Positions 42,001-56,776 of a stretch of DNA of 64,000 bases are shown one piece after another. The notes beneath the pieces are model-generated. The model had not been told where the DNA came from, made no database searches, and saw only the letters and a list, made by a program, of their open reading frames with translations. This DNA is from Gemmatimonadales bacterium. GTDB taxonomy: Bacteria > Gemmatimonadota > Gemmatimonadetes > Gemmatimonadales > JACORV01. The position numbers and the translations under genes were made by a program. Numbering within the stretch: the stretch's first letter is position 1; every line of letters starts with the position of its first letter. The stretch lies in NCBI GenBank assembly GCA_036493755.1, contig DASXPG010000028.1, forward strand, positions 138 to 64,137. The letters are read 5' to 3'.

Positions 42001-42034
42001 GGGCCGGACCTTCGGGTTCGGCCCTTTTCTTTCT
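42001..42034 (+). terminator. Intrinsic terminator between convergent genes
   Basis: Stem GGGCCGGA (42001-42008) / TTCGGCCC (42017-42024, one G-U pair), 8-nt loop, then ttttctttct. Confidence 0.6.
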
Positions 42035-43616
42035 AGTTGTTCGGCGCGCCCTGCAGAATCCAGTCGCGGACCAGGTGGATCTGGTTCGCCGACATCAGCC
42101 CCGACGTCGGCATCACGGCGCCGCACGATGGCGTGGCGGTCTTGATCTTGGCGTAGGCGAAGCTGTTCAGCGTGTCGTTGGCCACGATGCGCACCAGTCC
42201 CGGACAGGAGAACCCGCCGGTCGTCGACGCGTTCACCAGGGTGCCATAGTTGAAGCTGTGGCAGGTATTGCAGTTCCGGGTGACGATATCGGCGATGTTG
42301 TAGCTGAACGACACACCCACCTGCACGGTGTCGGTCACCGATGTGAACCCGGGTGAAGAGAACTGCAGGATCTGCATCCCGGCGCCGAGGGTATCGGTCG
42401 AAACTCGAGTCCCTTTGATCAGCAGGCCGCTGAAGGTGGCGCGTCCGGCAACCGCATTGACCGTGGTCGGCGAGCCGCTCAGCGTCCCATTCCCCGAAAT
42501 CAGCGTAACCGTCACCGGGTTGGTCGCACCCGGCACCCGGTTGCCGAATCCGTCGCGGATGTCGACAGTCGGCTGGGTCGAGAAGCTCGCATTCGCCACG
42601 GCGACGGTGTGCGTGCTGACGCCGATCTGGGTCGCGGTCGCGTTCGAGACGTTGACGGTGTCTTTCTGGACCAGGATGACCGTTCCGTTGACCTTGGCCG
42701 TGATCACCTTCCCCTCGGCGAAGGTCGAGCTGATCGCGCCGGTCGCCTGGCCGCCGGTGTCGGTGGTGTCGGGCGGCTGGCTCAAGGTATTGCCCGTCCC
42801 AGTCGCGGTCAGGGTCACGGTCGCGCCGCTGATGGTGCTGCCGGCCGAATCGCGCACCGTCACCGTGATGGTCGCGATGGATGAACCGCTGCTCGGCGCG
42901 ATCGCCGAGGGTGAGGCAGTGACGGTCGACATCGAGGCGCTCGGCGCGCCGACAGTGCCGGTCGCGGTGAAGACGGCGGGATTCCCGGTGACGCCGCTTC
43001 CGGCGATCGTCGCCGTCATCGAGTCGGCGCCATGGAAGGGCCCGAGGGTCCAGGCGGTCGACGCCTTGCCGTCGAAGCCGGTCACGGCGGTCGGCGGATT
43101 GACCTGCCCGCCATTGCCGGTCACCGCGAAGGTCACGGTAACGTTCGCTACCGGATTGCTCTGCGCGTCCAGAACCTCCACCGTCGGGGCTGCCGCGACG
43201 GCCGAGTTGACGGCCGCGCTCTGGGTGTTGCCGCCGGTGATGGTGAGCGTCGCCGGCGCGCCGGTCACGATGATGACCGAATGGCCCGAGACAGTGCCCA
43301 CCGCGGCACCGATGGTCGTGGTCCCCGGTGCGACCGCGTGCACCAGGCCACCGGTGTCGACCGTTGCGACCCCTGATGCGGACGAGGTCCACGTGACCAG
43401 ACGCTGGCTCTCGAGGGTCGAGAGAGAATCGAGCGGGGCCGCCTTCACCCGGACGGTATCGCCGACGCGCAGCGCGACGGTGTCGGGGGAGACCAGGACG
43501 CTTTTCACCGCGGCGAGCTGCGGGATGCTGAGATCGGCGCAACCGGCGATGAGGAGAACAGCGGCGAGGGCGCCCAGGATCGATCGCGTGGTCTGCGAAA
43601 AATTTGTCGTCATCAT
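42033..43616 (-). CDS. Surface lipoprotein with Ig-like (Big_2/invasin-like) repeats and a C-terminal CxxCH cytochrome-c-like domain
   Basis: Start ATG 43616 (MMTTNFSQ...LLIAGCADL, lipobox) in an ATGA overlap with the upstream kinase stop. Big_2-like segment: VSPDTVALRVGDTVRVKAAPLD...VTWTSSASGVATVD. C-terminus: NCNTCHSF...CGAVMPTSGLMSANQIHLVRDWILQGA, which resembles Planctomycete-type PSCyt1 domains (from memory). The listed 881-aa ORF extends spuriously into the kinase gene. Confidence 0.75.
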   Translation of the reverse strand: MMTTNFSQTTRSILGALAAVLLIAGCADLSIPQLAAVKSVLVSPDTVALRVGDTVRVKAAPLDSLSTLESQRLVTWTSSASGVATVDTGGLVHAVAPGTTTIGAAVGTVSGHSVIIVTGAPATLTITGGNTQSAAVNSAVAAAPTVEVLDAQSNPVANVTVTFAVTGNGGQVNPPTAVTGFDGKASTAWTLGPFHGADSMTATIAGSGVTGNPAVFTATGTVGAPSASMSTVTASPSAIAPSSGSSIATITVTVRDSAGSTISGATVTLTATGTGNTLSQPPDTTDTGGQATGAISSTFAEGKVITAKVNGTVILVQKDTVNVSNATATQIGVSTHTVAVANASFSTQPTVDIRDGFGNRVPGATNPVTVTLISGNGTLSGSPTTVNAVAGRATFSGLLIKGTRVSTDTLGAGMQILQFSSPGFTSVTDTVQVGVSFSYNIADIVTRNCNTCHSFNYGTLVNASTTGGFSCPGLVRIVANDTLNSFAYAKIKTATPSCGAVMPTSGLMSANQIHLVRDWILQGAPNN

Positions 43617-45943
43617 CGCATCGATTTGATGAGCCAGCCGGCTGCGCTGTGCTCGAATGAGGCCTGGAAGTGCACCGGCAGATGCTCGGTGCGGCGATTC
43701 TCCTGGCTGTAGAACTGGTATTCGCCGCTTACCGTGGCGTTCGCGGCATCGCCCTGGATATCGAGGCCCGATACCGCCAGCTGTACGTGAAGTTGCTCGA
43801 GGGTTCGCAGCGTGCCGGCGACCTGGTCTTCCTGCGCCGACGACATGCCGGGATACACCTTCCGCACCTCGGAAACCTGACGGGACTCGAGGGCTCGCGC
43901 GTAGGCCTGCACTACCGACGCGATGGCATCGCGGGGATTCACCGCCGCGGCGGCCGGCGGGGGCGGCGGCGGCGCGGGAGCCGGGGCCGGCGCGGCGAGT
44001 GGGGCGGCAGCCGGTGCGGGTGCTGATGTCGGCGCCGCGGCGACGACCTGCGCCTGGGGCGCGGGCGGCGGATTCGCCGCCGCGGCCGCGACCACCTGGA
44101 TGTTCGACTGTTGGCTGATCGAGCCGGCCCGCGCGGTGATGATCACGCTTCCCGGCGCGTGGGCGGTAATCAGGCCCGCCCGCGTGACCGTTGCCACGTT
44201 CGGCGCGCTGCTCGACCAGTTCACGTTGCCGTCGCTGGAGCGCGCGCCGCGGGTATCCACCGGCGTACCGCGCAGCTGCGCCGAGCCGCCAACGGTGAGC
44301 GAAGGAGGCGCACCCTGGACGAGAATCCGCGACGCGGGGCCGGCGGGGGCGCTGCCGGCGACGGGAAGGGGCGCGGTGACGGTGATCTGCGTATTGGTCT
44401 GGAGACCGCCCGAGGCGACCATGATGCGCGCGATTCCCGGCGCCTTGCCGCTGACCAGGCCGGCGCCGTTGATGGTCGCGATGGCGGGATCGGCGCTGAT
44501 CCACGTCACGGGCGTGCTCACGGAGCCGCCGGCCGAATCGCGAGGGGTGGCGCTGAGCTGGAGCGTGGCGCCGACGTCGAGGGCGCCGGCGGCCGGGTCC
44601 ACCAGGATGGCCGACACGTGCGCCGTGCTCGCCGCCGCAGGGGGTGCCGTGACGGCGCCGCGCGACCAGGGATGCCACGCCACAACACCGATGGCGGCGA
44701 TCACCACCGCCGCAACAGCGCCGTACATCGCGGTGGGCGACTTCTTTGACTGGCCCGCCGCGAGGGCTTTTGACGCGCTGGTACGAATCGTGGCCGCTCC
44801 GGCGGCCGCGGCGGCGGCCGAGCGGGAAGCCGCGGCCGTCTTTTTCATGGTCCGGGAGCGAATGGGCGTCGGACTGAGCGGCGTGCTGATCCGCTTGAGG
44901 ATCAGCGGATTCACGCCTTCCCTGGCCATTTTCATCAGCCGCATCCGCAGCGGATCGTCGAACGCCAGGTTTACCGTACCGATGGCCTCGACCGCGGCTT
45001 CCAGGGTGGGGAAGCGGTCTTCCGGCTCCTTGGCCAGCATCTTCATGACCGCGTCGTGCAGCTCGGCCGGGACCTCGGGATGCTGGTCACGGAAGGGTGG
45101 CGGCGGCTCGTGGACGTGCTTGTAGAGCAGGCTGACGATGCTGTCGCCCTGGAAGGGCAGGTGCCCGCTCAGCATTTCGTAGGTCACGACGCCTAACGAG
45201 TACTGGTCGGAGGCGCCGGTGATCTTGCCGGCGGTGCACTGCTCGGGACTCATGTAATGGGGCGTCCCCACCGTCGCGCCGGTCATGGTGAGGCCGCGCG
45301 CCTCGGAGACCTTGGCGATGCCGAAGTCGGTGACCACCGGCTGGCCTTCGACGTCGATCATCAGGTTGGCGGGCTTGATGTCGCGGTGGACCACGCCGCG
45401 GCGGTGGGCGTAGCCCAGCGCGTCGCCAACCTTGGAGATGATCGACTGCACCATCCGGGGCGGCAGCGGGCCGAGCTCCTTGACGATCGAATCGAGGGGC
45501 CGCCCCTCGACGAACTTCATGATGAAAAAGAGCAGGTCTTCGGTATCGCGGACCGCGAAGATCGGGATGATGTGCGGGTGGCTGAGCTGCGCGGCGGTGC
45601 GGGCTTCGAGCTTGAAGCGGTCGATCATCCCTTCGCCTTCGAGGAGCGAGGGGAGCATGACCTTGATGGCGACTTTGCGGGAGAGCTGGAGCTCGTGGCC
45701 GAGGTAGACGGTGGCCATGCCGCCGCGGCCCAGCTCGGTCAGGATCTCGTATTCGCCGGCGGTGGCATCCCGGAGGCGTTCCAGGAGGGCGTCATGCATC
45801 GCCTGGGTGGCGCTGGGAGCGACCTGCTTCGTTTCGAGGTGGTCCTGGATCCGGGACACGTTGTTGCCGCAGGTTGCGCAAAACTTGGCCCCCGGATCGA
45901 CGGGGTGGCCACACTGCGCGCAGGCGACGGTCTGGGTCGTCAC
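43613..45943 (-). CDS. Ser/Thr protein kinase with an N-terminal zinc ribbon, a TM segment, extracytoplasmic Big_2-like domains and an NTF2-like tail
   Basis: CAQCGHPVDPGAKFCATCGN, kinase motifs (VAIKVM, HRDIKPANLM, DFGIAK, GTPHYMSPEQ), TM segment AVAAVVIAAIGVVAW, and Big_2-like VTWISADPAIATINGAGLVSGKAPG. GTG start at 45943. Confidence 0.9.
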   Translation of the reverse strand: MTTQTVACAQCGHPVDPGAKFCATCGNNVSRIQDHLETKQVAPSATQAMHDALLERLRDATAGEYEILTELGRGGMATVYLGHELQLSRKVAIKVMLPSLLEGEGMIDRFKLEARTAAQLSHPHIIPIFAVRDTEDLLFFIMKFVEGRPLDSIVKELGPLPPRMVQSIISKVGDALGYAHRRGVVHRDIKPANLMIDVEGQPVVTDFGIAKVSEARGLTMTGATVGTPHYMSPEQCTAGKITGASDQYSLGVVTYEMLSGHLPFQGDSIVSLLYKHVHEPPPPFRDQHPEVPAELHDAVMKMLAKEPEDRFPTLEAAVEAIGTVNLAFDDPLRMRLMKMAREGVNPLILKRISTPLSPTPIRSRTMKKTAAASRSAAAAAAGAATIRTSASKALAAGQSKKSPTAMYGAVAAVVIAAIGVVAWHPWSRGAVTAPPAAASTAHVSAILVDPAAGALDVGATLQLSATPRDSAGGSVSTPVTWISADPAIATINGAGLVSGKAPGIARIMVASGGLQTNTQITVTAPLPVAGSAPAGPASRILVQGAPPSLTVGGSAQLRGTPVDTRGARSSDGNVNWSSSAPNVATVTRAGLITAHAPGSVIITARAGSISQQSNIQVVAAAAANPPPAPQAQVVAAAPTSAPAPAAAPLAAPAPAPAPPPPPPAAAAVNPRDAIASVVQAYARALESRQVSEVRKVYPGMSSAQEDQVAGTLRTLEQLHVQLAVSGLDIQGDAANATVSGEYQFYSQENRRTEHLPVHFQASFEHSAAGWLIKSMR

Positions 45944-46072: not shown

Positions 46073-46951
46073 GTGATGGATCGGCTCTCGGATCTGGCGC
46101 ATCGGGCGGGCCTGGCGGTGCTGGCACAGGCCACCGGCTACGCGTTCCTCATGTACCTGGTCTTCTCGCTGCTGGTACTGTGGCTGGAGACCCGCCGAGG
46201 TGGGCGCGCCGGCCTGCTGCGCTCCCGCGCCTTCATGAACGATGTGCTGTACGCGCTCTTCTACCGGGGCGGTCTTTACGCCGTGTTCGTGTGGGCGTTG
46301 CTCGTCAATCTGTTCCAGCGGCAGCTCGCATTTCTGCAATTGGGGCTGCTACGTGACGTGCCGATGATTGTCTCGGTCCCTTTATACTGGCTGGTCGGTG
46401 ACTTCCTTTTTTACTGGTTTCACCGGCTGCAGCACCGCGTACCGGCATTGTGGGCATTTCATCGTGTTCACCACGCCGCGCAATCGCTGAACACCTTCAG
46501 CCAGAATCGCCGACATCCGGTCGAATACACGCTCAACAGCCTGGTGTTCTATCTGCCGCTGGCATTCGTGCTGGGCCTCTCGACCAAGTCGTGGGTCCCC
46601 TGGTTCATGACGGCACAGCTGCTCGAGTCGCTTCAGCATGCCCAGCTGGATTGGGGATTCGGGCCGTTGTACCGGCTGGTCGTAAGCCCGGTGTTCCACT
46701 CCATCCACCACTCCAGCGATCCCCGGCATTTCAACCGCAATTTCGGTCCGATGCTGAGCGTCTGGGACTATATCTTCGGGACCGCCGCGGCCGATGCCGT
46801 CAGACCTGCGCAGTACGGTATCGAGGGGACGGTGATGCCGGAATCGTTGGCCGCGCAAACGGTTGGTCCGTTCCTGGTGCTCGCGCGATCCGGCCTGCGG
46901 CTCGATGCCCCCACGTCGGCCGCGGCTGTAGAGCCTGCGCCGCCGCTATAA
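46073..46951 (+). CDS. Fatty acid hydroxylase / sterol desaturase superfamily membrane protein
   Basis: Multi-TM protein with the three His boxes of membrane di-iron hydroxylases (FHRLQH, HRVHH, HSIHHSSD). Confidence 0.85.
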   Translation: MMDRLSDLAHRAGLAVLAQATGYAFLMYLVFSLLVLWLETRRGGRAGLLRSRAFMNDVLYALFYRGGLYAVFVWALLVNLFQRQLAFLQLGLLRDVPMIVSVPLYWLVGDFLFYWFHRLQHRVPALWAFHRVHHAAQSLNTFSQNRRHPVEYTLNSLVFYLPLAFVLGLSTKSWVPWFMTAQLLESLQHAQLDWGFGPLYRLVVSPVFHSIHHSSDPRHFNRNFGPMLSVWDYIFGTAAADAVRPAQYGIEGTVMPESLAAQTVGPFLVLARSGLRLDAPTSAAAVEPAPPL

Positions 46952-47033
46952 CCTGGAGCATTGACGCATCGAGCCCCGCGCATCACCTTCTTGTTGCCGC
47001 GCACAGTCATCCGTCCTGTTTCCAGGGAGAGCC

Positions 47034-47150
47034 ATGCGTCCCGACGCCCAGAAGCGCCCGTACGAGCCGCCAACAGTCAAAGTGCTCGATGAGAGCGAAA
47101 TGCTGGCCCAGTTCCAGATCACCAGTGCCGGCACCAGCTGGTGGGGCTGA
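47034..47150 (+). CDS. Unannotated 38-aa ORF, a candidate RiPP precursor peptide: MRPDAQKRPYEPPTVKVLDESEMLAQFQITSAGTSWWG
   Basis: My own translation; the ORF is below the ORF-track size cutoff. ATG 47034 is preceded by AGGGAGAG, and the stop TGA is at 47148-47150. It carries a YxxPxV...VLD leader-like motif and a Ser/Thr/Trp-rich C-terminus. It is flanked by a kinase and lies near PqqD-like and AsnB-like genes. Confidence 0.6.
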   Translation: MRPDAQKRPYEPPTVKVLDESEMLAQFQITSAGTSWWG

Positions 47151-48129
47151 TCCGGCCGTCCACGCTGTAATTCCTTCGCACGATGAGCTGGCGTGCTTTG
47201 CGCGTCAGGCAGTCGGGCGCCGCTGGTATCGGTTTGCGGACGCGTTTCTCGCTCTGTCCGCGGATGACCCACCTTTTCTCGAACGGTTCCACGAGTTGTA
47301 TGGCGCGCTGGCGTCGGATTCCCCGCCGCCCGGCGCGACGGTGCTCGATTGTGTCCTCATCTCCGGTCAATCGGACCTGCCGGTAATCGTAGGGATCTCG
47401 TCACTCGGGAAGCCAGTGAACTCTCTGGCCGCACTGGTGACACGCACGGGCTATCAAGAGGCAGTCCCCGCGGAGCAATGGCAGCGGTTTCGCGCACCAC
47501 TCGCAACTCTCCCAGGGGTATCGATCAGTTGCGACTGGGTGCTTGCCGATCGCCATTCGAGCTGGCAGTGGCAGGTGGCGAACCTGGTGGTCAACCTCGT
47601 CCTCGCCCTCCAGCCTGAGTTCCTCTTCTTCCATGCGGGCGCCGTGAACCTCGGCGGTCGCGGGGTGCTGTTGCTGGGGGCAAGCGGCCGGGGGAAGACC
47701 AGTGTGGCGCTGGCGCTTGCCGGGCGGGGACATGTCTACTACGGAGACGAGATCGGTGCCGTGCGCGCCGCGACACGTGAACTGGTGCCGATACCGCGCT
47801 CGGCCATGGTGCGAGCGCCGGAAGTGCTCGGGGCGGATCCGGCGGCGCGGATTCGCGTGACCGTCGACCGTCATCCGCGGTATCCGGTCGCACTGGCGGG
47901 CCTGATTTGTCTGCGCGCATTCGCGGACCGGACGGTCCTTACACGGTCTCGACCCACTTCCGATATGCTCGGTTTGATTACTCCGATGTCCTGCTCACTG
48001 GCATCTCGCGGGCCCGCACAGCTGGCCCTCGATCTGCTCCGACTCATCGAGGACATTCCCTGTTACGTGCTGGACTCCGCATCGCCGGCCAGCGCCGCCG
48101 AAGCTATTGAGGCCGCATTGATGTCCTGA
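47089..48129 (+). CDS. HPr kinase-related P-loop kinase (HprK-like)
   Basis: FFHAGAVNLGGRGVLLLGASGRGKTSVALALAGRGHVYYGDEI matches the HprK/HprK-related kinase P-loop region. The start is uncertain. The first in-frame canonical start after the hydroxylase gene is ATG 47089, which is out of frame inside the 38-aa ORF. The next canonical in-frame start I see is a TTG roughly 200 nt downstream. Confidence 0.7.
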   Translation: MRAKCWPSSRSPVPAPAGGADPAVHAVIPSHDELACFARQAVGRRWYRFADAFLALSADDPPFLERFHELYGALASDSPPPGATVLDCVLISGQSDLPVIVGISSLGKPVNSLAALVTRTGYQEAVPAEQWQRFRAPLATLPGVSISCDWVLADRHSSWQWQVANLVVNLVLALQPEFLFFHAGAVNLGGRGVLLLGASGRGKTSVALALAGRGHVYYGDEIGAVRAATRELVPIPRSAMVRAPEVLGADPAARIRVTVDRHPRYPVALAGLICLRAFADRTVLTRSRPTSDMLGLITPMSCSLASRGPAQLALDLLRLIEDIPCYVLDSASPASAAEAIEAALMS

Positions 48130-49038
48130 CGCCCCCCCCGGACGTTTCCAGGCCCGAAGCCTCTGCGCCAATCGATCGACATCCAGAAACGTCAATACCA
48201 GCCATGTCTCCCCGACGTGGATGCTGAGAATGAGCATGATGCCCACCGCGAAAGCGAGCAGCACCGGCAGCAGGATTGCGCGGGCGATTTTCGAGAACAC
48301 CGCCAGCACGACCGACCATTCCAGCACTACCGTCACGATCCCGATGATCAGGCACAGCGTTGGGTGCGCTGCGAGCCAGAATGCCAGCGAGTGGAAACGC
48401 CACCTCGGGTCCAGCGCGAAAACAAGTAGCCAGCGACGAATGCTTTCGGCGCTGCTCCACCGCCAGCCACTTGCCTCGGCCTTCGCGAATGCGGCGAAGA
48501 GGTAGATCTGGGCAACGAAGAGCCAGGTGAGCCGGAGCGGCCAGCCATATCGCCACGACGGCTCATGATCTGAAGCCGGCGAACGCGGCCAGAGCTGGTA
48601 GCCGCCGGCGCCCGGTGCGCAGGCCAGAACCACCAGGATGAGCGGCGTGAGCGTCAGCCCGCGCGCAAAGGGCGTAGGTGTCCAGATGAAGGTTTCCAGC
48701 GGCGCGAGGTGATAGACGAGAAGGCTCGCGACCACGCAGGCCACGCGCGGGAGTACGCCGAGCGCCACGCATACCAGGGCGATGATCGCTATCGTTTGCA
48801 GGCTCTGCTCGAATACCGGGTGACCCGGGAAGAGCAGGTAGCGCCACCGGAGACCCGAAGGAATGCTTATCCAGAAGATCGGCAGCCCGGACACCGCCGC
48901 GTAGTTGCGGGAGAACATCATCCACAACGCGTGGAGCGCCACGAGCGACCGCACCCAGGTGAGATTCAGTGGCGACGCGGGCTCGAACCAGAATTCATCC
49001 CACAGCCGGCGCATCCGTTCTACCAGCCGATTCATCAT
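47995..49038 (-). CDS. HTTM-domain (vitamin-K-dependent gamma-carboxylase-like) integral membrane protein
   Basis: The start MMNRLVERMRRLWDEFWFEPASPLNLTWVRSLVALHALWMMF, followed by multiple TM helices, is typical of HTTM/SdpB-like proteins. ATG 49038 is in an ATGA overlap with the upstream gene. The 3' 135 nt overlap the convergent kinase gene. Confidence 0.7.
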   Translation of the reverse strand: MMNRLVERMRRLWDEFWFEPASPLNLTWVRSLVALHALWMMFSRNYAAVSGLPIFWISIPSGLRWRYLLFPGHPVFEQSLQTIAIIALVCVALGVLPRVACVVASLLVYHLAPLETFIWTPTPFARGLTLTPLILVVLACAPGAGGYQLWPRSPASDHEPSWRYGWPLRLTWLFVAQIYLFAAFAKAEASGWRWSSAESIRRWLLVFALDPRWRFHSLAFWLAAHPTLCLIIGIVTVVLEWSVVLAVFSKIARAILLPVLLAFAVGIMLILSIHVGETWLVLTFLDVDRLAQRLRAWKRPGGASGHQCGLNSFGGAGRRCGVQHVTGNVLDESEQIEGQLCGPARCQ

Positions 49039-49682
49039 TGTTGCGCTGGGAATGTGTAGAGGATAGTCCGCCGCATCGCAGCTGGATCGCGCGCCCGCGT
49101 CTCGACGTTCCAGTGCTCCCAATAGAGGCGAATGCCGACGAACGCGGTATTGGGAACGTCGTCGCGGTTTTGCCAGCGTCGGGCGAGGAGAAGGTGACTG
49201 GGCGCCGCGAGATCGCGGAGTCTCCGGGTCACCACGCCGGGCCACTGCCCGGCGCGAGCCGCGAGCCGCGCCGATTCGGTTTTTTTAAGCAGGAACGCGC
49301 CGACGCTGTCGCGCGCGGGACCGCTCAGCGAGTTGACGTTTCGCATGAGCCACGTGAGCAGCTCTTCGTAGGTGAATGGCTCCCAGGCGCGATAGTCGAT
49401 GGGGTATTCGTCGCCATTGCTGGTGACGGCGACGGCCTGAACCACGGCGTATGCTGAATCGGATACCTCGGTCGGACCGACGCGCTGCATGAGGCGCCAG
49501 TAAGAAAACGGCCAGAGATCGCGCTGAGAAATGCCCGCCAGGAATGAGACGCCCAGGATATAGGCGATGAAGCAATTGATCCAGCGGCGGCTTACAGCTT
49601 CGCCGCGACCGCCCGCGATGATCACGATCAGACCGAGTATGACGAAGCCGGCGAAGCCGAGTGCGGCAATGAGGTAGGTCAC
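49035..49682 (-). CDS. Hypothetical 2-TM membrane protein (partner of the HTTM protein)
   Basis: GTG 49682 (VTYLIAALGFAGFVILGLIVIIAGG) is in a GTGA overlap with the formyltransferase stop. Two TM helices precede a soluble domain. I recognise no family. Confidence 0.55.
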   Translation of the reverse strand: MTYLIAALGFAGFVILGLIVIIAGGRGEAVSRRWINCFIAYILGVSFLAGISQRDLWPFSYWRLMQRVGPTEVSDSAYAVVQAVAVTSNGDEYPIDYRAWEPFTYEELLTWLMRNVNSLSGPARDSVGAFLLKKTESARLAARAGQWPGVVTRRLRDLAAPSHLLLARRWQNRDDVPNTAFVGIRLYWEHWNVETRARDPAAMRRTILYTFPAQQ

Positions 49683-50575
49683 GCCGGGGCGGCCCGCCCG
49701 GCAGCCACGGCCGAAAGGTGCACCCGTCCATCGCGACACCAGAGTTCCCAGCCGTGGTCTCCACGGGTCACGATCCCCGGCCGTTCCAACGGATCCATGA
49801 CATCGTATCCATGCACCGATCGGTACTGCACTGGGCGACCGCGTTCATCCAGCAGCGGCTCATGAAAGCGTCCACACATCCCGGCGAGGAAATGCCAGAC
49901 CCGCTCGGCACTCCAGCTGTCGAACGCCACCATTGCCATGCCGGGGCGCACCGATGGCGCGCGCGTCGCGCTGGTCTCGTCTTGCTCCACCGGTGAGATT
50001 CCGTTCGCGAGCGCAATCAGTCCGATGCGGAAGAGATCGCCTCCGGCGGCCGAGGCCTGGAGGTACGCTTGCTCAACGGGGAGGCCTCGTGCCAGCGGCC
50101 AGCGACGCTGCGCCAGGATCGGACCGCTGTCGGCGCGCGCGGTCGCCACATGGAGTGTGATGCCTGTCTCGCGGTCGTCGTGGTAATAGGTCCAGAAAAA
50201 CGGATTCGCGCCGCGATGCCGCGGCAGCAACGAGGGATGCAGATTCACCACGCCTCGCGCCGGAAACTGAAGCACCTCGGCAGGAAGAACCCACGGAAAG
50301 AGTGCCACGCAGAGCAAATCCGGAGCGAGACGCGCCAGGCCCTGAAGAAGGCGCGGATCGCGGCGCGATGCGCAGCGAATCACCGGGATGCCTCGCTGCG
50401 CGGACCAGGCCGCTGCATCGTCGCCCAGCGCCGGACGACGGCGTACCATGCCAGCCGCGCGTGCGCGCCACCCGCCCTCGGGAAGCACCACCGCGGCGAT
50501 CTGGTGATCGCACGCGAGTGCCGTCAGCGAGTCGAGTGCAAGGGGTCCGCCGGTTGTGGCGAAGATGATCCGCAC
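49679..50575 (-). CDS. Formyltransferase (Fmt/ArnA-N-like)
   Basis: GTG 50575 gives an MRIIFATTGGP start, like Fmt. NLHPSLLPRHRGANPFFW is the formyltransferase catalytic box, followed by ADSGPIL. The listed start at 50689 would overlap the divergent gene. Confidence 0.8.
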   Translation of the reverse strand: MRIIFATTGGPLALDSLTALACDHQIAAVVLPEGGWRARAAGMVRRRPALGDDAAAWSAQRGIPVIRCASRRDPRLLQGLARLAPDLLCVALFPWVLPAEVLQFPARGVVNLHPSLLPRHRGANPFFWTYYHDDRETGITLHVATARADSGPILAQRRWPLARGLPVEQAYLQASAAGGDLFRIGLIALANGISPVEQDETSATRAPSVRPGMAMVAFDSWSAERVWHFLAGMCGRFHEPLLDERGRPVQYRSVHGYDVMDPLERPGIVTRGDHGWELWCRDGRVHLSAVAAGRAAPA

Positions 50576-50670
50576 GATACGTTCCTGCACGGCCGGAGGC
50601 GTGGCGGGTCTGACCGAGCAGCGAAGATGGGTGCAGTGCTTCGTGCCGTCAATCCAGAACAGGTGCCGGT

Positions 50671-51201
50671 GTGAGAGCTGACGCGGCACGAATCGAGGAC
50701 CCTCGGCTGCTGACCACAGCGGCCGAACTGTTCGCGCGCGCCGAGCGCACCATTGAGTGCTCGGTGCGCGGGACCAGCATGTCGCCCACGCTTCCGGACG
50801 GTTGCCGCATCCGGGTGCGGTGCGGGGTTCCGGCCCGCGTGCCCGTCGGCGAGATCGTGGTTCTCGCCGTCGCTCCGGGAATCCTCATCACCCATCGGGT
50901 GCTGAAGGCGCGAGGGTGGAATGGCGGCCGGGGCCATCTCCTGACGCAAGGCGATGGGGCGGTGCTTTGCGACGAGCCGATCCCGATGCGCGCGTTCGTC
51001 GGCTGCGTGATTGCCTTCGATGACGGCGCGGGCTGGATCGTCCCAGGGAATCGGCCACGACGGACGCTCGCGGCGCGATGGGGCGCCGCATCGCATCGGC
51101 TGCTCATCGCGGCCCTGATGGCCGTACATCCCGAGCTGGCGCGGCAGATCGCGCGCTTGTCGTACTTCCTTTGCGGGATTGATCCGCCGGCATCGGCTTG
51201 A
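50671..51201 (+). CDS. S24/S26-family serine peptidase, SipW/ER-type (Ser-His) signature
   Basis: RGTSMSPTLPDG (catalytic Ser box), GEIVVL and GILITHRVL. In the last box, bacterial SPase I and LexA have the catalytic Lys (KRV/KRL); a His at this position is typical of SipW/Sec11-type enzymes (from memory). Hydrophobic C-terminal tail. Confidence 0.65.
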   Translation: MRADAARIEDPRLLTTAAELFARAERTIECSVRGTSMSPTLPDGCRIRVRCGVPARVPVGEIVVLAVAPGILITHRVLKARGWNGGRGHLLTQGDGAVLCDEPIPMRAFVGCVIAFDDGAGWIVPGNRPRRTLAARWGAASHRLLIAALMAVHPELARQIARLSYFLCGIDPPASA

Positions 51202-51228: not shown

Positions 51229-51531
51229 ATGCTCATGAACAATGGAGAAGCCACGATGCGTTACCATCGCGCGCCCGGTATCGAGGCGGCACCGATGCAG
51301 GACGAGACCGTCCTCTTCGATCCGAATACGAAGAAGTTCTGCATCCTGAACGCGACCGCTGCGCACCTGTGGGAGTCCCTCGAACGGCCGTGTTCCGCCG
51401 CCGAGCTGGCCGCGTCGATCGTGGGAGCCTTCGACGGGGTCGACCCGAAGATCGCGGAGCGTGACGTCCAGGTCGCGCTGAAGGACCTGGTGGGCCTGGG
51501 CATCGTCGGCGCCAGCGGCGCGGACGCCTAA
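51229..51531 (+). CDS. PqqD-family protein (RiPP recognition element-like peptide chaperone)
   Basis: ETVLFDPNTKKFCILNATAAHLWESLERPCSAAELAASIVGAFD...AERDVQVALKDLVGLGIV is the classic PqqD/RRE pattern. The start is ATG 51229 or ATG 51256. Confidence 0.8.
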   Translation: MLMNNGEATMRYHRAPGIEAAPMQDETVLFDPNTKKFCILNATAAHLWESLERPCSAAELAASIVGAFDGVDPKIAERDVQVALKDLVGLGIVGASGADA

Positions 51532-51551: not shown

Positions 51552-52109
51552 ATGGAGTTGTCCGTTCGCGGGCGCGGCGATGCCGTCGCGACATTCCGTT
51601 TCATCAATGTCCATCTCATGGAAACACTGGCGGGCTGGGTCCCGACGACGCCGGAGCTGGAGGTCAAGGTCCTGTTCGGCCGCCATCTCTGGGATTTCGC
51701 GCAGCACGCCGACGCGTTCGGCAAGCGCGCGGCGGAGCTTCGTCTCCAGCTCCACGCTTCTCGCGCGCCGACCGCCGAATTGCAAGGCGTCCTCGATGAT
51801 CTGCGGAGGACAACGCGCACGGCGCAGCGGCTGGGGCGACTCTACCACGGCGTTGTCCCGGGTGTCGAACGGCTCTACACCGCGTACCTCGCGCAGGTCG
51901 ACGAGCTGATGGACGAGCCGACCGTCCGCATCATCGGGCACGGGCTGCTCGACACCGGTCGCATGGGGCGCGAAGCCGAAAGCCTGAGTGCTCAAGGCGG
52001 GCCGTCGCTGGAGAACGGCGCCGGATCCACGGCATCCGGCGGACCGTTCGGGTCACTCGATCGCGTGATCGACTTCCGGCCTGCGGTCGCCGCCGAGGCC
52101 GAGGCCTGA
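51552..52109 (+). CDS. Hypothetical helical protein, possibly a degenerate ferritin-like (DUF455-related) subunit
   Basis: By eye, HLMETLAGWVPTTPELEVKVLFGRHLWDFAQHADAFGKRAAELR parallels LEIAAQALVDFADAPWDLKLRLARQAADEARHTALLYRRLRELG of the next gene. The first ExxH reads FAQH, so one ligand is lost. Confidence 0.4.
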   Translation: MELSVRGRGDAVATFRFINVHLMETLAGWVPTTPELEVKVLFGRHLWDFAQHADAFGKRAAELRLQLHASRAPTAELQGVLDDLRRTTRTAQRLGRLYHGVVPGVERLYTAYLAQVDELMDEPTVRIIGHGLLDTGRMGREAESLSAQGGPSLENGAGSTASGGPFGSLDRVIDFRPAVAAEAEA

Positions 52110-52138: not shown

Positions 52139-52921
52139 GTGCGAGGGGTCACGCTCCAGGAGGACCCCGCGCGCGAGCCCTGCTTCCACTGCGTTACGCT
52201 GGACTCGGAGATGCAGGAGTGGCCCGGGATGTCGGATATTTCCCGCCGCGAGCGCCTGCATCGCCACATGAACAACGAGTGCGGCGCGCTCGAGATCGCG
52301 GCCCAGGCCCTGGTCGATTTTGCCGACGCGCCGTGGGACCTGAAGCTTCGTCTCGCGCGCCAGGCGGCGGACGAAGCGCGGCACACCGCGCTCCTCTACC
52401 GGCGGTTGCGGGAGTTGGGCGGCACCAAGGGTGAATTCCCGGTCGCGAATATCGAGTGGGGCATTACCGGGATGATCGAAAACCTCGCGGGCCGGCTGGC
52501 GATCCAGAACCGGACTTTCGAGGCGGGACTCATCGACCTGCTGGGCAATCTGCGAAATACCTGGCGCGAAGCCGGTGATCACGCCACCGCCGACCTGCTC
52601 GACGGCATCCTCGCGGACGAGATCGTGCACGTCCGGTACGGCAATCGCTGGATTCGCCGCCTCACCGAGCAACGGCCGGCCGTATTGCTCCAGGTCGCGA
52701 TGGCGGTGCGTCTGCTGCGCCAGGCTCTGCGAGGGCTCGCGCCGGCGGACGGCGATGTCAATCGCTCCGGCCTGGTGCTCACGACCAAGCTACCGCCGGC
52801 GGTCTACGTATCCGGGCGGCTCGAAGCCGAATTCACGGAGGCCGAGGTCGAAGAGGTTCTGCGTCAGGCCGGATTCCGATCCATCCTTCCGCACCCACTC
52901 GTGGAGCAGGCCCGTGGCTGA
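52139..52921 (+). CDS. Ferritin-like di-iron protein (DUF455-like)
   Basis: Two ExxH boxes about 100 residues apart (ADEARH ... ADEIVH), an intervening conserved Glu (NRTFEAG), and an all-helical character. Confidence 0.6.
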   Translation: MRGVTLQEDPAREPCFHCVTLDSEMQEWPGMSDISRRERLHRHMNNECGALEIAAQALVDFADAPWDLKLRLARQAADEARHTALLYRRLRELGGTKGEFPVANIEWGITGMIENLAGRLAIQNRTFEAGLIDLLGNLRNTWREAGDHATADLLDGILADEIVHVRYGNRWIRRLTEQRPAVLLQVAMAVRLLRQALRGLAPADGDVNRSGLVLTTKLPPAVYVSGRLEAEFTEAEVEEVLRQAGFRSILPHPLVEQARG

Positions 52922-53660
52922 AGCCGTCGTCCCCCTCGATCCGGCCTTGTTCGGTCCCGGCCAGGCGCGTGACGCGCGCTTTACCGTGCGCGAACGCTGG
53001 GGCGAGATGGCCAATAACCCGCCGCGCACGCCCGCCTACCAACGGGAGTTTCTCCATCGCCAGGCCAATGAAGAGGCCAACGTCATGGAGCAGGCCGCGC
53101 AGAGTCTCGTGGACTTCCCGGACGAGCCATGGGAGATCCGCCTCTGCCTGGCACGCCAATGCGCCGATGAGGGCCGTCACGTCCTGCTCTACCTGCGCCT
53201 GCTGCGCGAGCGTGGCATCGGCATCGGCGAATATCCGGTGCTGAACTTCCAGTACCGCGTGCTGAGCCGCATCGACTCGCTGGTGGGCCGGCTCGCCGTG
53301 GAGAACCGGACCTTCGAGGCAGATGGGCTGGATGCCGCGACGTTCGGCGTCGCGGAGGCAAGGAAGGACGGCGACCATGCTCTCGCCGACGTACTCGACG
53401 CCCAGCAAGCGGACGAAATCGTGCATGTCGGGTTTGCCAACGCCTGGATCCGGCGCGAGGTCGAGCGCGATCCGCGCACCGTGTTGCGCATGGCAGCGGC
53501 GATCACCCGGGCCGCGCGCGCGTTCGCCACGGTGTTCGAAGGCGGCATGCAGGTGCGCTACCCGGTGGCGCAGGACGAGCGCCGAGAGGCCGGTTTTCAG
53601 GATCGGGAAATCCGGGTCGCCGCGGACCTGTCCGCTGCCCGGCGTCGCGGGGAGTCGTGA
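52914..53660 (+). CDS. Ferritin-like di-iron protein (DUF455-like), tandem paralog
   Basis: Same box pattern as the upstream gene (ADEGRH ... ADEIVH, NRTFEAD). GTG 52914 overlaps the upstream gene by 8 nt. The listed 361-aa ORF start is an out-of-frame extension. Confidence 0.6.
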   Translation: MAEAVVPLDPALFGPGQARDARFTVRERWGEMANNPPRTPAYQREFLHRQANEEANVMEQAAQSLVDFPDEPWEIRLCLARQCADEGRHVLLYLRLLRERGIGIGEYPVLNFQYRVLSRIDSLVGRLAVENRTFEADGLDAATFGVAEARKDGDHALADVLDAQQADEIVHVGFANAWIRREVERDPRTVLRMAAAITRAARAFATVFEGGMQVRYPVAQDERREAGFQDREIRVAADLSAARRRGES

Positions 53661-53664
53661 TGCC

Positions 53665-55572
53665 GTGTGCGGAATAGCGGGTTTCGCGAGCGCATCGCCC
53701 GATGCCGATGATGTAAATCGGCTCCGACGCGCGCTGGGAGTTCTCCAGCACCGCGGACCCGACGATGAAGGTTGGCTGACCCACCCCACCACCCCTGACC
53801 GCGGCCCGCTCGTCGGGCTCGGCAATCGCAGGCTCCGCATCATCGATCTCTCGCCTGGTGGCCATCAGCCCATGACGACGGCTGACGGCCGGTACTCCAT
53901 CACGTACAACGGCGAGATCTACAACTACCGCGAGCTACGCTCCGACCTCGAAACGGCCGGGCATCGCTTCGTGTCGAGCAGCGACACCGAAGTTCTGCTC
54001 CACGCCTGGGCCGCGTGGGGTACGGATGCCTTGCCGCGCCTGGACGGGATGTTTGCTTTTGCCATACTCGATCGTGTCGAGCAACGGCTGACGCTGGCAC
54101 GCGACCCCGCCGGGATCAAGCCGTTGTTCTTTCACGTCACGCTCCCGGACGCCATCGTGTTCGCTTCCGAGATCAAGGCGATTCGCGAGTTGCGGACCGT
54201 CGGCTCGCGCGTCAATCCAACACGCTTGAGAGATTACCTGGTCGAGCGCTTTACCGGTCGCGGCGACGCGACACTGCTGGAGGACGTTCAGCAGGTGCCG
54301 CCGGGTCACTATCTCACCGTCTCGCTGCGGCAGCCGGGCGTTCCTGCGCTAACGCGTTACTGGGAGTACGGCACCGAAGAAAGCCGCCCCGTGAGTTTCG
54401 CGTCGGCCGTGGACGAGCTTCGGGATCTGCTGACGGACAGCGTTCGCAGTCACCTGCGCAGCGACGTGCCGCTCGGCTTCTTGCTGTCCGGCGGCCTGGA
54501 TTCATCCTCGGTCCTGACGATCGCGCGCCAGGTGCTCGGTGCCGATGCCGATCTGCGAACGTACAGCTATATCGACGATGACCCGATGCTCAACGAGAGC
54601 ATCTATCAGGTGTGCGTGACGGCAGCGAATCGCGCGACACGTCATGCTGTCCGTGTCGAACCGGAAGAGCTGGTGCGGGACTGGGACCAGTTCATGGACA
54701 TCCAGCAGGAGCCGTTCTTCAGCCCGGTCGTGTACGTGCAGTACCGGGTATTGGAGCGCGCCCGCGAGGACGGCGTCAAGGTGATCCTCGGGGGCCAGGG
54801 CGCGGACGAGCTCTTCGCGGGGTACCAGCGGTTCGCGACCGCCCGCGCCGCCTCGCTCTGGCGCCAGGGCCGCTGGATGGACGCGGGCCGCCTCATCGGC
54901 TCGGCAGCGCAACGATGGCAAACGCCGCGGCTCTCGTTGATGCGAACCAGCCTTGCGCTCGCGCTGCCGCCGCTGGTGGCCGACGCCTATCGGGCGGTCC
55001 GCCATGCCGGGCGGGCGACCAGTGTGCCCGACTGGCTCAACACCGGTTGGTTCACGGGGCAGGGCGTGCCGCCCGTCAGGCAATGGTCTCCGGCCGGCGA
55101 TGACGTGCTGCGGGAATTCCTGGAATACACCCTGACGAGCACGCACCTTCAGGATCTCATGCGCTTCGAGGATCGCAGCGGGATGGCCCTGTCCATGGAG
55201 AGCCGCGTACCGTTTCTCGCGCCGCGCCTGCTGCGCTTCGCCTCGGCGTTGCCGGAGGAATTCCTCGTTTCGGAGAGCGGGAAGTCCAAGTTCATCTTGC
55301 GCGAGGCAATGCGCGGCTTGGTACCGGACGCGATCCTCGACCGGCGTGTGAAGGTCGGCTTCTCGGTGCCGGTTGTACGGTGGCTGGTGCAGTCCTCGTC
55401 GTGGGTTGAGGGCAAACTGGCGATGGCCGAGGATTGTCCCGCGGTGTTCGCGCCGGCTCTTCGCAGGCGCTGGCAACAGGTCCAGCAGGGTGACGTCGTC
55501 GGCGCATACGAGCTGTGGGGTATCTTCTCGCTGTTGACGTGGGCCGAGCGGGGGGCCATGCAATGGCAGTAA
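53665..55572 (+). CDS. Asparagine synthetase B-family glutamine amidotransferase
   Basis: The GTG 53665 start is followed by CGIAGF (the Ntn glutaminase Cys). Also HRGPDD, YNGEIYN, and the PP-loop LSGGLDSS in the synthetase domain. Confidence 0.9.
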   Translation: MCGIAGFASASPDADDVNRLRRALGVLQHRGPDDEGWLTHPTTPDRGPLVGLGNRRLRIIDLSPGGHQPMTTADGRYSITYNGEIYNYRELRSDLETAGHRFVSSSDTEVLLHAWAAWGTDALPRLDGMFAFAILDRVEQRLTLARDPAGIKPLFFHVTLPDAIVFASEIKAIRELRTVGSRVNPTRLRDYLVERFTGRGDATLLEDVQQVPPGHYLTVSLRQPGVPALTRYWEYGTEESRPVSFASAVDELRDLLTDSVRSHLRSDVPLGFLLSGGLDSSSVLTIARQVLGADADLRTYSYIDDDPMLNESIYQVCVTAANRATRHAVRVEPEELVRDWDQFMDIQQEPFFSPVVYVQYRVLERAREDGVKVILGGQGADELFAGYQRFATARAASLWRQGRWMDAGRLIGSAAQRWQTPRLSLMRTSLALALPPLVADAYRAVRHAGRATSVPDWLNTGWFTGQGVPPVRQWSPAGDDVLREFLEYTLTSTHLQDLMRFEDRSGMALSMESRVPFLAPRLLRFASALPEEFLVSESGKSKFILREAMRGLVPDAILDRRVKVGFSVPVVRWLVQSSSWVEGKLAMAEDCPAVFAPALRRRWQQVQQGDVVGAYELWGIFSLLTWAERGAMQWQ

Positions 55573-55760
55573 CGGTGTTTCCCGGGACGCCCGACACGGC
55601 CTGGATCAACGAGCTCAGCGACGAGGAGTGCATGGAGGTGTTCTGGCTCTACGTCGATCCGCCCGAACCATTCCTGAATGCGCACCCGGCCCCCTTGCTG
55701 GGCGCGGCGATGCGGCATGCGCTCCGGCTCATCGTGGCCGATCAGCGGGGACCGGCGTGA
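55563..55760 (+). CDS. Hypothetical 65-aa protein
   Basis: ATG 55563 overlaps the asnB-like stop by 10 nt. The stop is in a GTGA overlap with the next gene. The coupling suggests the ORF is real. No recognisable domain. Confidence 0.4.
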   Translation: MAVTVFPGTPDTAWINELSDEECMEVFWLYVDPPEPFLNAHPAPLLGAAMRHALRLIVADQRGPA

Positions 55761-56776
55761 ACGACACCTCGACCGACCGCGCCTTCTGCGAGCGCATGTT
55801 GCCCGGTGTGTCGCGCACCTTCGCGCTCACCATCCGGCTGCTGCCGCCGGGCCTCGAGTATCCGGTGCTGGTCGCGTACCTCCTGTGCCGCGTCGCCGAC
55901 ACCATCGAAGACTCGACCCTCTTGCCGGTGGCGTTGAAGGTGTCGTTGCTCGAACACTTCCGGACTTGCCTCGACGACGACGGTCCCGATGCCGCGGCGC
56001 TGCACGCGGCATTCGCCGGTACGTCCGACGAAGAGACGCTGGCCCGCGAAGCCGACATCGTGCTGCGCGAATTTCGTCGTCTGCCTGGAGCGCAACGCGC
56101 GGCGATCCGGCCCTGGGTGCAGGAGATGTGCACCGGCATGGCATCGTTCGTCGCCGCGGGCGGCAGCGAAGGCTCGGGCCGGCTCCAGATGCTGGCCAGC
56201 GTCGAGGAGCTGGAGCGCTACTGCTATTTCGTCGCCGGGACCGTGGGTCACCTGCTGACGGCGCTCTTCCGGCTGCACGATGGCGAGATGACCGAGGCGC
56301 AGTACCAGCGCCTTGAATCCCTCGCAACCAGCTTCGGCCTCGGTCTCCAGATGACCAACATCGTGAAGGACGTGGCCGATGACCGCGGGCGGGGCGTGAG
56401 CTTCGTGCCGCGCGAGCTGTTCGAGACCAGCGGCATCAAGCCGGAGGATCTGCCGGCGGCGGCGCGCGATGGATTGGCGGGGCGGGTGATGCAGCCGCTG
56501 ATCGCGCGGGCCCGGCGGCACCTCGCGTCGGCCCTCGACTACTGCACCACGCTGCCGCGCCGGCAGTATCGCATCCGGCTCTTCTGCCTGACGTCGCTCT
56601 ACTTCGCGGCGCGCACCCTGCGGCTGGCGCGGCGCGAACCGGCGCTGCTGGGCGGCGAGCGCAAGATCAAGATCAGCCGTGGCGCGGTGTATCGGACCCT
56701 GGCGATGACCTATCTCGTCGCGCCCGTCGATGCTTTGGTCCGCGCGTATTTCGTTCGGCTCGAAGGAGCCGGCTAG
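55757..56776 (+). CDS. Squalene/phytoene synthase family protein (squalene synthase-like)
   Basis: FCERMLPGVSRTFALTIRLLP is the N-terminal box of squalene-synthase-type enzymes. Two Asp-rich motifs are present (VADTIED and KDVADD). GTG at 55757. Confidence 0.8.
   Translation: MNDTSTDRAFCERMLPGVSRTFALTIRLLPPGLEYPVLVAYLLCRVADTIEDSTLLPVALKVSLLEHFRTCLDDDGPDAAALHAAFAGTSDEETLAREADIVLREFRRLPGAQRAAIRPWVQEMCTGMASFVAAGGSEGSGRLQMLASVEELERYCYFVAGTVGHLLTALFRLHDGEMTEAQYQRLESLATSFGLGLQMTNIVKDVADDRGRGVSFVPRELFETSGIKPEDLPAAARDGLAGRVMQPLIARARRHLASALDYCTTLPRRQYRIRLFCLTSLYFAARTLRLARREPALLGGERKIKISRGAVYRTLAMTYLVAPVDALVRAYFVRLEGAG

Follow-up and report, generated by a model that had tools for sequence, protein, structure and literature searches.

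A probable ribosomal-peptide precursor with a Trp-Trp pair and its associated ferritin-like gene set in a Gemmatimonadales genome

Linear polyphosphorylated peptides (LPP), the products of the lppA-K-B-S-D-N genes of Paenibacillus alginolyticus, are, according to the paper that describes them, confined to Bacillota (Popov et al., Nat Commun 2026, PMC13381572). LPP precursors have 35-200 residues and highly variable C-termini, and their leaders, which follow the consensus YxxPxVLxHQxIxFETxxS, end in F-E-T; LppB binds the YxxP leader, the signal peptidase I (SpI)-like peptidase LppS cleaves after T-1 and needs LppB to do so, and LppK polyphosphorylates Ser3 of the core, the unphosphorylated precursor being cleaved poorly (PMC13381572). 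The motif [Y/W]xxPx[L/V/I/F/A] is documented for the recognition proteins of both lasso peptides and LPPs; paeninodin-type leaders are of the WxxP kind, and those of LPPs and most other lasso peptides of the YxxP kind (PMC13381572). This is the closest known system to the peptide family described here, whose starting point is a 38-codon open reading frame (ORF) at positions 47034-47150 of a 64,000-nucleotide stretch (contig DASXPG010000028.1; hereafter "the window", meaning the whole stretch) of a Gemmatimonadales metagenome-assembled genome.

We consider it very probable that this ORF is the precursor (A) gene of a ribosomal-peptide cluster, and that it belongs to an undescribed family distributed over Gemmatimonadota, Acidobacteriota and many unassigned metagenome contigs. 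What is new is the precursor family, with an almost invariant Trp-Trp pair near its C-terminus, together with a conserved set of ferritin-like di-iron proteins; what is already known is the LPP-like machinery for delivery and processing.

A conserved small gene beside a kinase gene

The ORF runs from ATG 47034 to the stop codon TGA 47148-47150 and its translation, read from the window sequence, is MRPDAQKRPYEPPTVKVLDESEMLAQFQITSAGTSWWG. A first-pass annotation of this DNA had given the same bounds, translation and upstream signal, which match the window exactly. A 38-codon ORF by itself proves nothing, because G+C-rich DNA is full of overlapping chance ORFs; in fact, the peptide region has about 64% G+C and such ORFs are abundant on both strands. 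The first-pass annotation had also called the ORF hidden, which holds in part: it was apparently missed by the NCBI annotation of the same contig, since its exact sequence is on record from JGI only, but JGI's gene calls already list it, as a hypothetical protein (positions 2266-2382 of L002, an identical contig). A promoter and terminator scan found none, Rfam gave no match on either strand at the peptide region, and the peptide had no match in Pfam, NCBIfam or the Protein Data Bank chains.

The ORF is judged to be real, and not a chance one, because it is conserved in related loci. A scan of the genome collection with the peptide pattern gave a single chance match without an ORF (L005) and the metagenome collection gave none; the related loci were obtained via protein look-ups. 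A single intact homologous ORF occupies the same position beside the kinase gene in all nine of them, each time with a GGAG or GAGG motif 4-9 nt on its 5' side. L001 is a 51.8 kb metagenome contig whose kinase is 46% identical to that of the window; there, a JGI-called 40-codon gene lies between a fatty-acid-hydroxylase-family gene and the kinase gene, and its product is MSPKVSEKRPYEAPSITVVDESALLTQFQITSAATGWWTA. The closest relative, L004, encodes MRPDAQAKRPYEPPTIKVLDESEMLAQFQITSAGTSWWF. Compared codon by codon, the window and L004 ORFs differ by 10 synonymous and 3 non-synonymous changes, with a ratio of non-synonymous to synonymous rates (dN/dS, Nei-Gojobori) of 0.054; the ratio is 0.33 between the window and L001.

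Both the comparison of synonymous with non-synonymous conservation and the search for small ORFs beside HprK-like kinase genes had been proposed in the first-pass annotation; the former favors coding, and the latter recovered such ORFs in 9/9 related loci. The annotation had further reported an HprK-like kinase gene adjoining the ORF, which indeed follows it, and had remarked that ATG 47089 lies in another frame and might mark the true 5' end of that gene. This codon is in the frame of the downstream kinase, but its position reads GAC GAG in both L001 and L004, where the kinase frame runs into stop codons between the peptide and kinase genes, and the peptide ORF is uninterrupted in the syntenic loci. 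We conclude that ORF 47034-47150 is a real gene under purifying selection. As a separate observation, the peptide and kinase genes of L004 share one frame around positions 511-600, with a single TGA between them.

The Trp-Trp peptide family

A profile of three peptides, searched against 1.84 billion representative proteins (E <= 0.001), gave 77 matches, 75 of which are small peptides or PqqD-peptide fusions with the family motif; in their source databases the family peptides are called hypothetical or unnamed. Consensus counts were made on 83 sequences, composed of the profile matches and the peptides from the fetched loci, which align gap-free from a Tyr to a Phe-Gln pair; this Tyr, Y10 of the window peptide, is taken as position 0. 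The consensus reads Y-x-x-P-x-(I/V)...F-Q-x-T-x-A, after which 3, 4 or 7 variable residues lead to W-W and a short tail. The conserved positions are Tyr at position 0 (82/83), Pro at 3 (83/83), Ile, Val or Leu at 5 (83/83), Glu at 10 (75/83), Glu or Asp at 12 (79/83), Leu at 14 (82/83), Phe at 17 (79/83), Gln at 18 (83/83), Thr at 20 (70/83) and Ala at 22 (72/83). The N-terminal 32 residues of the window peptide form a rigid conserved leader; of the short C-terminal part that follows, only W36-W37 is constant and the rest varies. The pair is found in 81/83 peptides, 9, 10 or 13 residues past the conserved Phe; 1-3 residues follow it in 57 of these 81, and a tail of 5-13 residues, often with Cys, in the others; predicted cores range from 6 to 20 residues across the family.

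The sequence features that the first-pass annotation had read in the peptide, namely Y10-E-P-P13-T-V15, the C-terminal TSAGTSWWG and the lack of acidic residues in that end (no Asp or Glu follows E22), are all present, and its view of the first as a leader motif of the type read by PqqD proteins agrees with the family counts at positions 0, 3 and 5. Two peptidase sites had been proposed. The one between TSA and G agrees with the T-x-A of the family and with the S26B/SEC11-type peptidase of the cluster; the one between MLA and Q is disfavored, as its -1 position is often Lys in the family.

Three types of core can be recognized: WW followed by 1-3 residues, often as WWVM or WWG; WW followed by a tail of 5-13 residues in which Cys forms patterns, as in WWATGMC or WWMPCTTGCP; and the "FQMTAAEISAAGCWW" group, which has a longer spacer and a Cys immediately before WW.

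A PqqD domain, a linker of ~25 residues, the leader and the core form one continuous ORF in the metagenome proteins P0140, P0167, P0173 and P0186. It is unusual for a recognition protein to be naturally fused to its own substrate, and these fusions would lend modest support to the leader recognition proposed below. In an AlphaFold2 model of one such fusion the leader is predicted as a strand (I-R-V-M) plus a helix that ends at the conserved Thr, with a predicted local distance difference test score (pLDDT) of 75-81, and the linker and the core have pLDDT values below 50.

The gene cluster and a proposed pathway

The biosynthetic cluster spans ~46.07-55.57 kb of the window (Table 1) and was mapped by Pfam and NCBIfam scans, JGI calls on the identical contig L002 and homologue alignments. 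Its family marker is a 185-aa protein, unk185, which in the window is identical to locus tag VGI92_01960: as a query it returned 401 homologous clusters (90% identity), against only 2 relatives for the kinase. Seven long contexts of unk185 homologues (45-57% identity; L006, L008, L010, L011, L012, L013 and L014) were fetched, originating from Gemmatimonadales, Acidobacteria and unassigned metagenomes, and each of the seven holds exactly one family peptide, beside the kinase gene. Complete loci also number seven (the window, L006, L008 and L010-L013), since the L014 contig ends before the peptidase position. By tblastn with the window proteins, and by gene calls for L013 and L014, all seven complete loci contain the peptide, the PqqD protein, the kinase, unk185, both DUF455 proteins and the signal-peptidase-like protein; AsnB is present in six (it is absent from L010) and also in L014, with two copies each in L013 and L014. 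The usual order, found in most loci, is PqqD, peptide, kinase, unk185, DUF455a and DUF455b, and there the genes from the kinase onwards overlap by 1-4 nt, which points to a single operon.

Table 1. Features of the peptide gene and its cluster in the window
Feature	Positions	Strand	Remarks
Membrane fatty-acid-hydroxylase-family di-iron enzyme	46076..46951	+	PF04116 E 2e-30; clade-specific accessory
Shine-Dalgarno-like AGGGAGAG	47024..47031	+	GGAG core ends 4 nt before ATG 47034
Precursor peptide gene (very probable)	47034..47150	+	38 codons + stop, product MRPDAQKRPYEPPTVKVLDESEMLAQFQITSAGTSWWG
Leader motif Y10-E-P-P13-T-V15	47061..47078	+	predicted binding site of the PqqD protein
Junction F27-Q28-I29-T30-S31-A32	47112..47129	+	predicted leader/core boundary, with a putative cleavage bond
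HprK-like kinase	47125..48129	+	P-loop GASGRGKT; probable start
Predicted core GTSWWG	47130..47147	+	W36-W37 at 47139-47144
HTTM-like polytopic membrane protein	47995..49038	-	accessory; weak HTTM match, E 3e-4
215-aa protein	49035..49682	-	accessory; no Pfam family
Formyltransferase-family protein (Fmt/ArnA-like)	49679..50590	-	accessory; PF00551 E 1e-23
SEC11/SipW-type signal peptidase I homologue	50671..51201	+	predicted leader peptidase
Discrete PqqD-type recognition element for RiPP (peptides made by ribosomes and then modified post-translationally)	51229..51531	+	PF05402 E 6e-12
185-aa protein unk185	51552..52109	+	family marker; no Pfam/NCBIfam family; ferritin-like helical bundle
DUF455 ferritin-like di-iron protein, paralogue a	52139..52921	+	PF04305 E 2e-28
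DUF455 ferritin-like di-iron protein, paralogue b	52914..53660	+	48% identical to paralogue a
AsnB-type glutamine-dependent amidotransferase	53665..55572	+	TIGR01536 418 bits (cut-off 267)

The kinase matches Hpr_kinase_C with E 1.9e-6, below the Pfam gathering cut-off, and does not pass HprK_rel_A TIGR04352 (34 bits against a cut-off of 200); its P-loop is kept in 6 loci. It probably starts at GTG 47125 (or ATG 47089), inside the peptide ORF but in a different frame, so that the two genes overlap: the start must lie upstream of 47230 because the conserved N-terminal motif (W/Y)YRF(A/G)DG has to be included, and these two codons are the only in-frame starts on its 5' side. The start called by JGI, TTG 47296, was rejected as too short, as it removes this motif.

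A PqqD-like protein in the cluster had been noticed in the first-pass annotation; in NCBIfam it comes closest to lasso PqqD chaperones, below cut-off, and among solved structures to TbiB1 and 9x90_B, both lasso B1 proteins, and then to the PqqD-family chain 9x8z_B, all of these matches being weak. It does not pass TIGR04353 of the HPr-rel-A system (23.8 bits against 35). The peptidase gene lies 27 nt upstream of the PqqD gene, and its motifs GxSMxP, HRV and GD give a predicted Ser36-His75-Asp95 triad, kept in 6 loci; the best solved relative, human SEC11A, aligns over exactly these motifs, and the score against TIGR02228 is 29 bits, below cut-off. The motifs assign it to the signal peptidases of the endoplasmic reticulum/archaeal/SipW type, and neither to the LexA type nor to the lasso B2 proteases.

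The AlphaFold2 model of unk185 is a helical bundle (pLDDT 94), with fold matches to PaaA/PaaC of phenylacetyl-CoA epoxidase, YciF-type proteins and the toluene-4-monooxygenase beta subunit at template modeling (TM) scores of 0.5-0.65. Both DUF455 paralogues have the ligands E, ExxH, E, ExxH invariant in 16 sequences, and the DUF455 profile aligns to the bacterioferritin ferroxidase site; a literature search on DUF455/PF04305 found no characterized member. A match of DUF455a to Crov588 (6nyr) was discarded as spurious, Crov588 being a leucine-rich repeat protein. The AsnB homologue starts with fMet-Cys-Gly-Ile, and Cys1 is kept in 9/9 homologues from related clusters, which all start with (M/V)CG; it passes the true asparagine-synthase model (Table 1) and fails the lasso cyclase model NF033535 (268 bits against 525). 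Its sequence thus marks it as a glutamine amidotransferase. The paralogue pairs of L013 (145-2106 and 2461-4335) and L014 (1145-3124 and 5516-7435) share the (M/V)CG start.

These assignments suggest a pathway. If its parts work as they do in lasso and LPP systems, the PqqD protein would bind the YxxPxV stretch (Y10-V15) as a beta-strand and present the peptide to the enzymes, the kinase would phosphorylate a Ser or Thr near the leader/core junction, and the peptidase, helped by the PqqD protein, would remove the leader at or next to T30-S31-A32. Cleavage after A32, releasing GTSWWG, would be favored because family position 22 holds small residues (Ala, Ser, Gly, Thr, Val), with a single Asn as the exception, which fits the -1 position of signal peptidases; position 20 also tolerates Asn, Gln, Leu, Pro and His. 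The T-x-A pattern agrees with the (-3,-1) rule of signal peptidases. Cleavage after T30, in the LPP register, is possible. Judging from gene content, unk185 and the two DUF455 proteins may form an O2-dependent oxygenase that acts on Trp-Trp by hydroxylation or cross-linking, AsnB may amidate the C-terminus of the core, which is the sole carboxylate in most cores, and the membrane hydroxylase, the HTTM-like pair and the formyltransferase may provide further tailoring or export in the window's clade. The invariant W-W, the ferritin-like trio and a Trp halogenase gene beside the L006 cluster (L006 78-1379) are compatible with Trp chemistry; a Trp-derived product had been put forward as a speculation in the first-pass annotation. 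We tentatively go one step further, at less than even chances, and propose a new class of ribosomal peptides in which a hetero-oligomeric ferritin-like di-iron oxygenase (unk185 plus DUF455a/b) would modify the adjacent Trp-Trp pair of a 6-8-residue core, giving a cross-link or a Trp-derived quinone-like chromophore, on a peptide delivered in the LPP manner.

Several findings weigh against this pathway. None of the kinase, the recognition protein and the peptidase reaches the curated cut-off of its nearest NCBIfam model. Of the five conserved LPP genes, two are missing from the window: neither an NTP transferase (LppN; NTP, nucleoside triphosphate) nor an MsbA-like exporter (LppD) is among the ORFs scanned over 36.6-62.6 kb, and no ABC exporter was seen in any related locus. 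The cleavage bond is ambiguous: the F-E-T end of LPP leaders would place it after T30, the lasso rule after S31 and the signal-peptidase rule after A32. Across the family the core has no invariant Ser or Thr, and a test for complementary Ser/Thr positions was not significant (0 peptides without both, ~1 expected). The fold matches of unk185 reach only E 0.02-0.2 and the protein has no canonical second ExxH, and the neighborhood shows no obvious reductase or ferredoxin that could serve the ferritin-like proteins. Finally, the AlphaFold2 model of the fusion gives no contact map for the predicted docking of the leader on the recognition protein.

The remaining genes vary among loci. A fatty-acid-hydroxylase-family gene adjoins the peptide or the PqqD gene in L001, L004, L006, L008, L013 and L014. 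The HTTM match is firm for the homologues in L013 and L014, and homologues also occur in L001, L006, L008 and L012; in the window the HTTM-like ORF overlaps the 3' end of the kinase gene by 135 nt (47995-48129), and its annotated C-terminus may be a read-through into that gene, because its last ~45 residues are not conserved in homologues. The 215-aa protein is always paired with the HTTM-like gene, its tblastn homologues lying beside it in L001, L006, L008 and L012, and homologues of the formyltransferase are found in L006, L008, L013 and L014. Clade-specific extras include NTP_transf_5 nucleotidyltransferase genes in L006, L008, L012 and L013, an Asp/Arg beta-hydroxylase in L013 (6735-7424), and proteins of 340-357 aa without a Pfam family that follow the second DUF455 gene in L012 (8504-9577), L013 (12127-13146) and L014 (12116-13183); these are 58-65% identical to one another and absent from the window. 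A prolyl-oligopeptidase-type S9 peptidase abuts the L010 cluster. In L006 (GCA_036679605.1), positions 7323-8276 of the minus strand, 3' of the peptide gene, hold a kinase homologue (36% identity by tblastn) that is absent from the NCBI calls, and a 77-aa gene is called opposite it.

Directly 3' of AsnB in the window lies a squalene/phytoene-synthase-family gene (55628-56776, plus strand), which was seen beside none of the related clusters and is probably outside the system. A Ser/Thr kinase with Big_2 domains and a Big_1/invasin-like gene flank the cluster both in the window (42033-45943, minus strand) and in L008 (1-3173, minus strand). The cluster genes are arranged differently in the two despite these common flanks, which suggests rearrangement in place and not separate acquisition.

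Alternative explanations and relation to known systems

Among the alternatives, the one that fares best, although we regard it as unlikely, is a plain LPP pathway outside Bacillota, limited to polyphosphorylation and cleavage, with the ferritin-like proteins and AsnB belonging to an unrelated neighboring pathway. The recognition protein, the HprK-like kinase and the SpI-like peptidase are common to LPP, LPP leaders also combine YxxPxV with an F-x-T junction, and four related loci carry the NTP_transf_5 genes mentioned above. However, every complete locus has unk185 and the two DUF455 genes, mostly directly 3' of the kinase gene with the 1-4 nt overlaps, and the seven contexts retrieved through unk185 all hold the peptide; moreover, the leader departs from the LPP consensus beyond YxxPx(V/I), short cores with an invariant WW contrast with LPP precursors of 35-200 residues, and the window has no MsbA-like exporter.

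Somewhat less likely still is that the peptide is a sacrificial scaffold, on which a Trp-derived cofactor or signal is built on W-W and then excised, as in pyrroloquinoline quinone (PQQ), mycofactocin and the pearlins. WW is invariant near the C-terminus while its flanking residues vary, and a PqqD protein, oxygenases and a peptidase are at hand, as are the S9 peptidase abutting the L010 cluster and the Trp halogenase beside that of L006; the likeness to PQQ and mycofactocin lies in a small precursor with conserved aromatic residues near its C-terminus, a chaperone of the PqqD family, and a peptidase alongside oxidative enzymes. A radical SAM enzyme is the defining catalyst of the PQQ and mycofactocin pathways, and no radical SAM domain occurs in the called genes of the window cluster or of the nine related loci, so the system is not of the PQQ or mycofactocin type. 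Ferritin-like di-iron proteins are found instead, which have no known precedent in scaffold pathways; no locus has a LanB/PEARL-type ligase or a second conserved protease that could free WW from tails of 1-13 residues, tail length after WW varies, and 15 tails have conserved-looking Cys patterns, which suggests that the tail matters in the product.

The first-pass annotation had described the leader as lasso-like, and we also weighed a lasso peptide precursor, for which AsnB would be the macrolactam cyclase and the kinase would tailor the product, as in paeninodin; we find this reading very improbable. The wording suits the leader, with its YxxPxV motif and a PqqD protein present in the cluster, but not the product. 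As in paeninodin-type clusters, a PqqD-type B1 protein reading [Y/W]xxPx[L/V/I], whose best matches are lasso B1 proteins, an HprK-like kinase gene by the precursor and an Asn-synthase-family gene occur together, and a cut after S31 would place T30 at -2 and A32 at core position 1. The differences are more substantial: an Asp or Glu occurs past the conserved F-Q in only 7/83 peptides, so that 76/83, the window peptide among them, lack an isopeptide acceptor; no transglutaminase-like B2 cysteine protease was found among the cluster ORFs by Pfam and NCBIfam, and the peptidase is of the Ser-His-Asp type; AsnB keeps Cys1, scores as an asparagine synthase and not as a lasso cyclase, and is missing from the otherwise complete L010; and a core of 6-8 residues would be too short for a threaded lasso. 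Paeninodin-type leaders, moreover, carry Trp (WxxP), and the window peptide is of the Tyr type; the string WQEPTIEVLD, which the first-pass annotation had given for paeninodin-type precursors, was not found in PMC13381572. Because three of the four defining features tested (acceptor, B2 protease and cyclase) are lacking and only the leader motif is present, the Trp-Trp family does not, as far as its sequences tell, consist of lasso peptides.

The possibility that the ORF is no gene at all, being instead where the kinase gene begins (ATG 47089) or a frame that arose by chance in DNA rich in G+C, has a negligible probability and is already refuted by the conservation data, for although ATG 47089 and GTG 47125 are both in the kinase frame, the kinase probably overlaps the final 26-62 nt of the ORF and many spurious ORFs overlap the region on both strands, the substitutions follow the peptide frame, the kinase frame is closed by stops and ATG 47089 is replaced in L001 and L004, the ORF is intact in all nine related loci with 75 homologous peptide clusters, and Rfam is silent on both strands.

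Returning to the Trp-Trp precursor family, a literature search found no paper describing it (subscription journals were largely outside its scope), RRE-Finder makes no mention of it, and for ferritin-like oxygenases with such peptides, or HprK with a signal peptidase, only the LPP paper was relevant. The family has no Pfam or NCBIfam model and is not rare, with at least 75 peptide clusters (50% identity) and ~400 clusters of the marker protein (90% identity); it is a good lead for genome mining. If the proposed pathway is true, the trio of recognition protein, HprK-like kinase and signal peptidase would extend from Bacillota to Gemmatimonadota and Acidobacteriota, two soil phyla that resist cultivation and from which few natural products are known, and the widespread DUF455 family would gain a first, testable candidate substrate, a peptide with an invariant Trp-Trp. 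In the new class proposed above, DUF455 would also have its first biochemical role, and ribosomal-peptide biosynthesis its first ferritin-like oxygenase. The minimal cluster of the L010 type, seven genes in ~4.2 kb with a core of about ten residues, suits heterologous expression and mass spectrometry.

Two known systems frame this proposal. Like LPP clusters, those of this family encode a small precursor whose N-terminal leader has YxxPx(V/I), a recognition protein of the PqqD type that stands by itself, and a kinase resembling HprK; the leader peptidase (here predicted) is in both cases a Ser-His-Asp signal peptidase of the archaeal/SipW type, with a Ser-to-His spacing of 39 (S29/H68 in LppS, S36/H75 in the window). 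In both, the core is preceded by a conserved aromatic-x(1-2)-Thr junction and a macrolactam cyclase is lacking, and NTP_transf_5 genes recur in several related loci. The two differ in phylum (Bacillota against Gemmatimonadota and Acidobacteriota), in the Tyr-to-Phe spacing (17 here, 13 in LPP), which makes the leader four residues longer here and leaves only YxxPx(V/I) in common, in the junction (F-Q-x-T-x-A against F-E-T-x-x-S), in the core, which here has 6-20 residues and an invariant Trp-Trp in place of a long variable C-terminus, and in the conserved ferritin-like trio, usually with AsnB, none of which is reported for LPP. The second is the group of multi-subunit ferritin-like di-iron oxygenases that includes the phenylacetyl-CoA epoxidase PaaABC and the toluene-4-monooxygenase hydroxylase: unk185 is predicted to fold as PaaA/PaaC and as the toluene monooxygenase beta subunit, and it appears to be co-transcribed with two ligand-complete ferritin-like proteins, a layout that resembles a hetero-oligomeric hydroxylase. 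Sequence similarity is negligible, and the neighboring genes include none for a reductase, a ferredoxin or an effector subunit; in addition, a peptide is here the presumed substrate.

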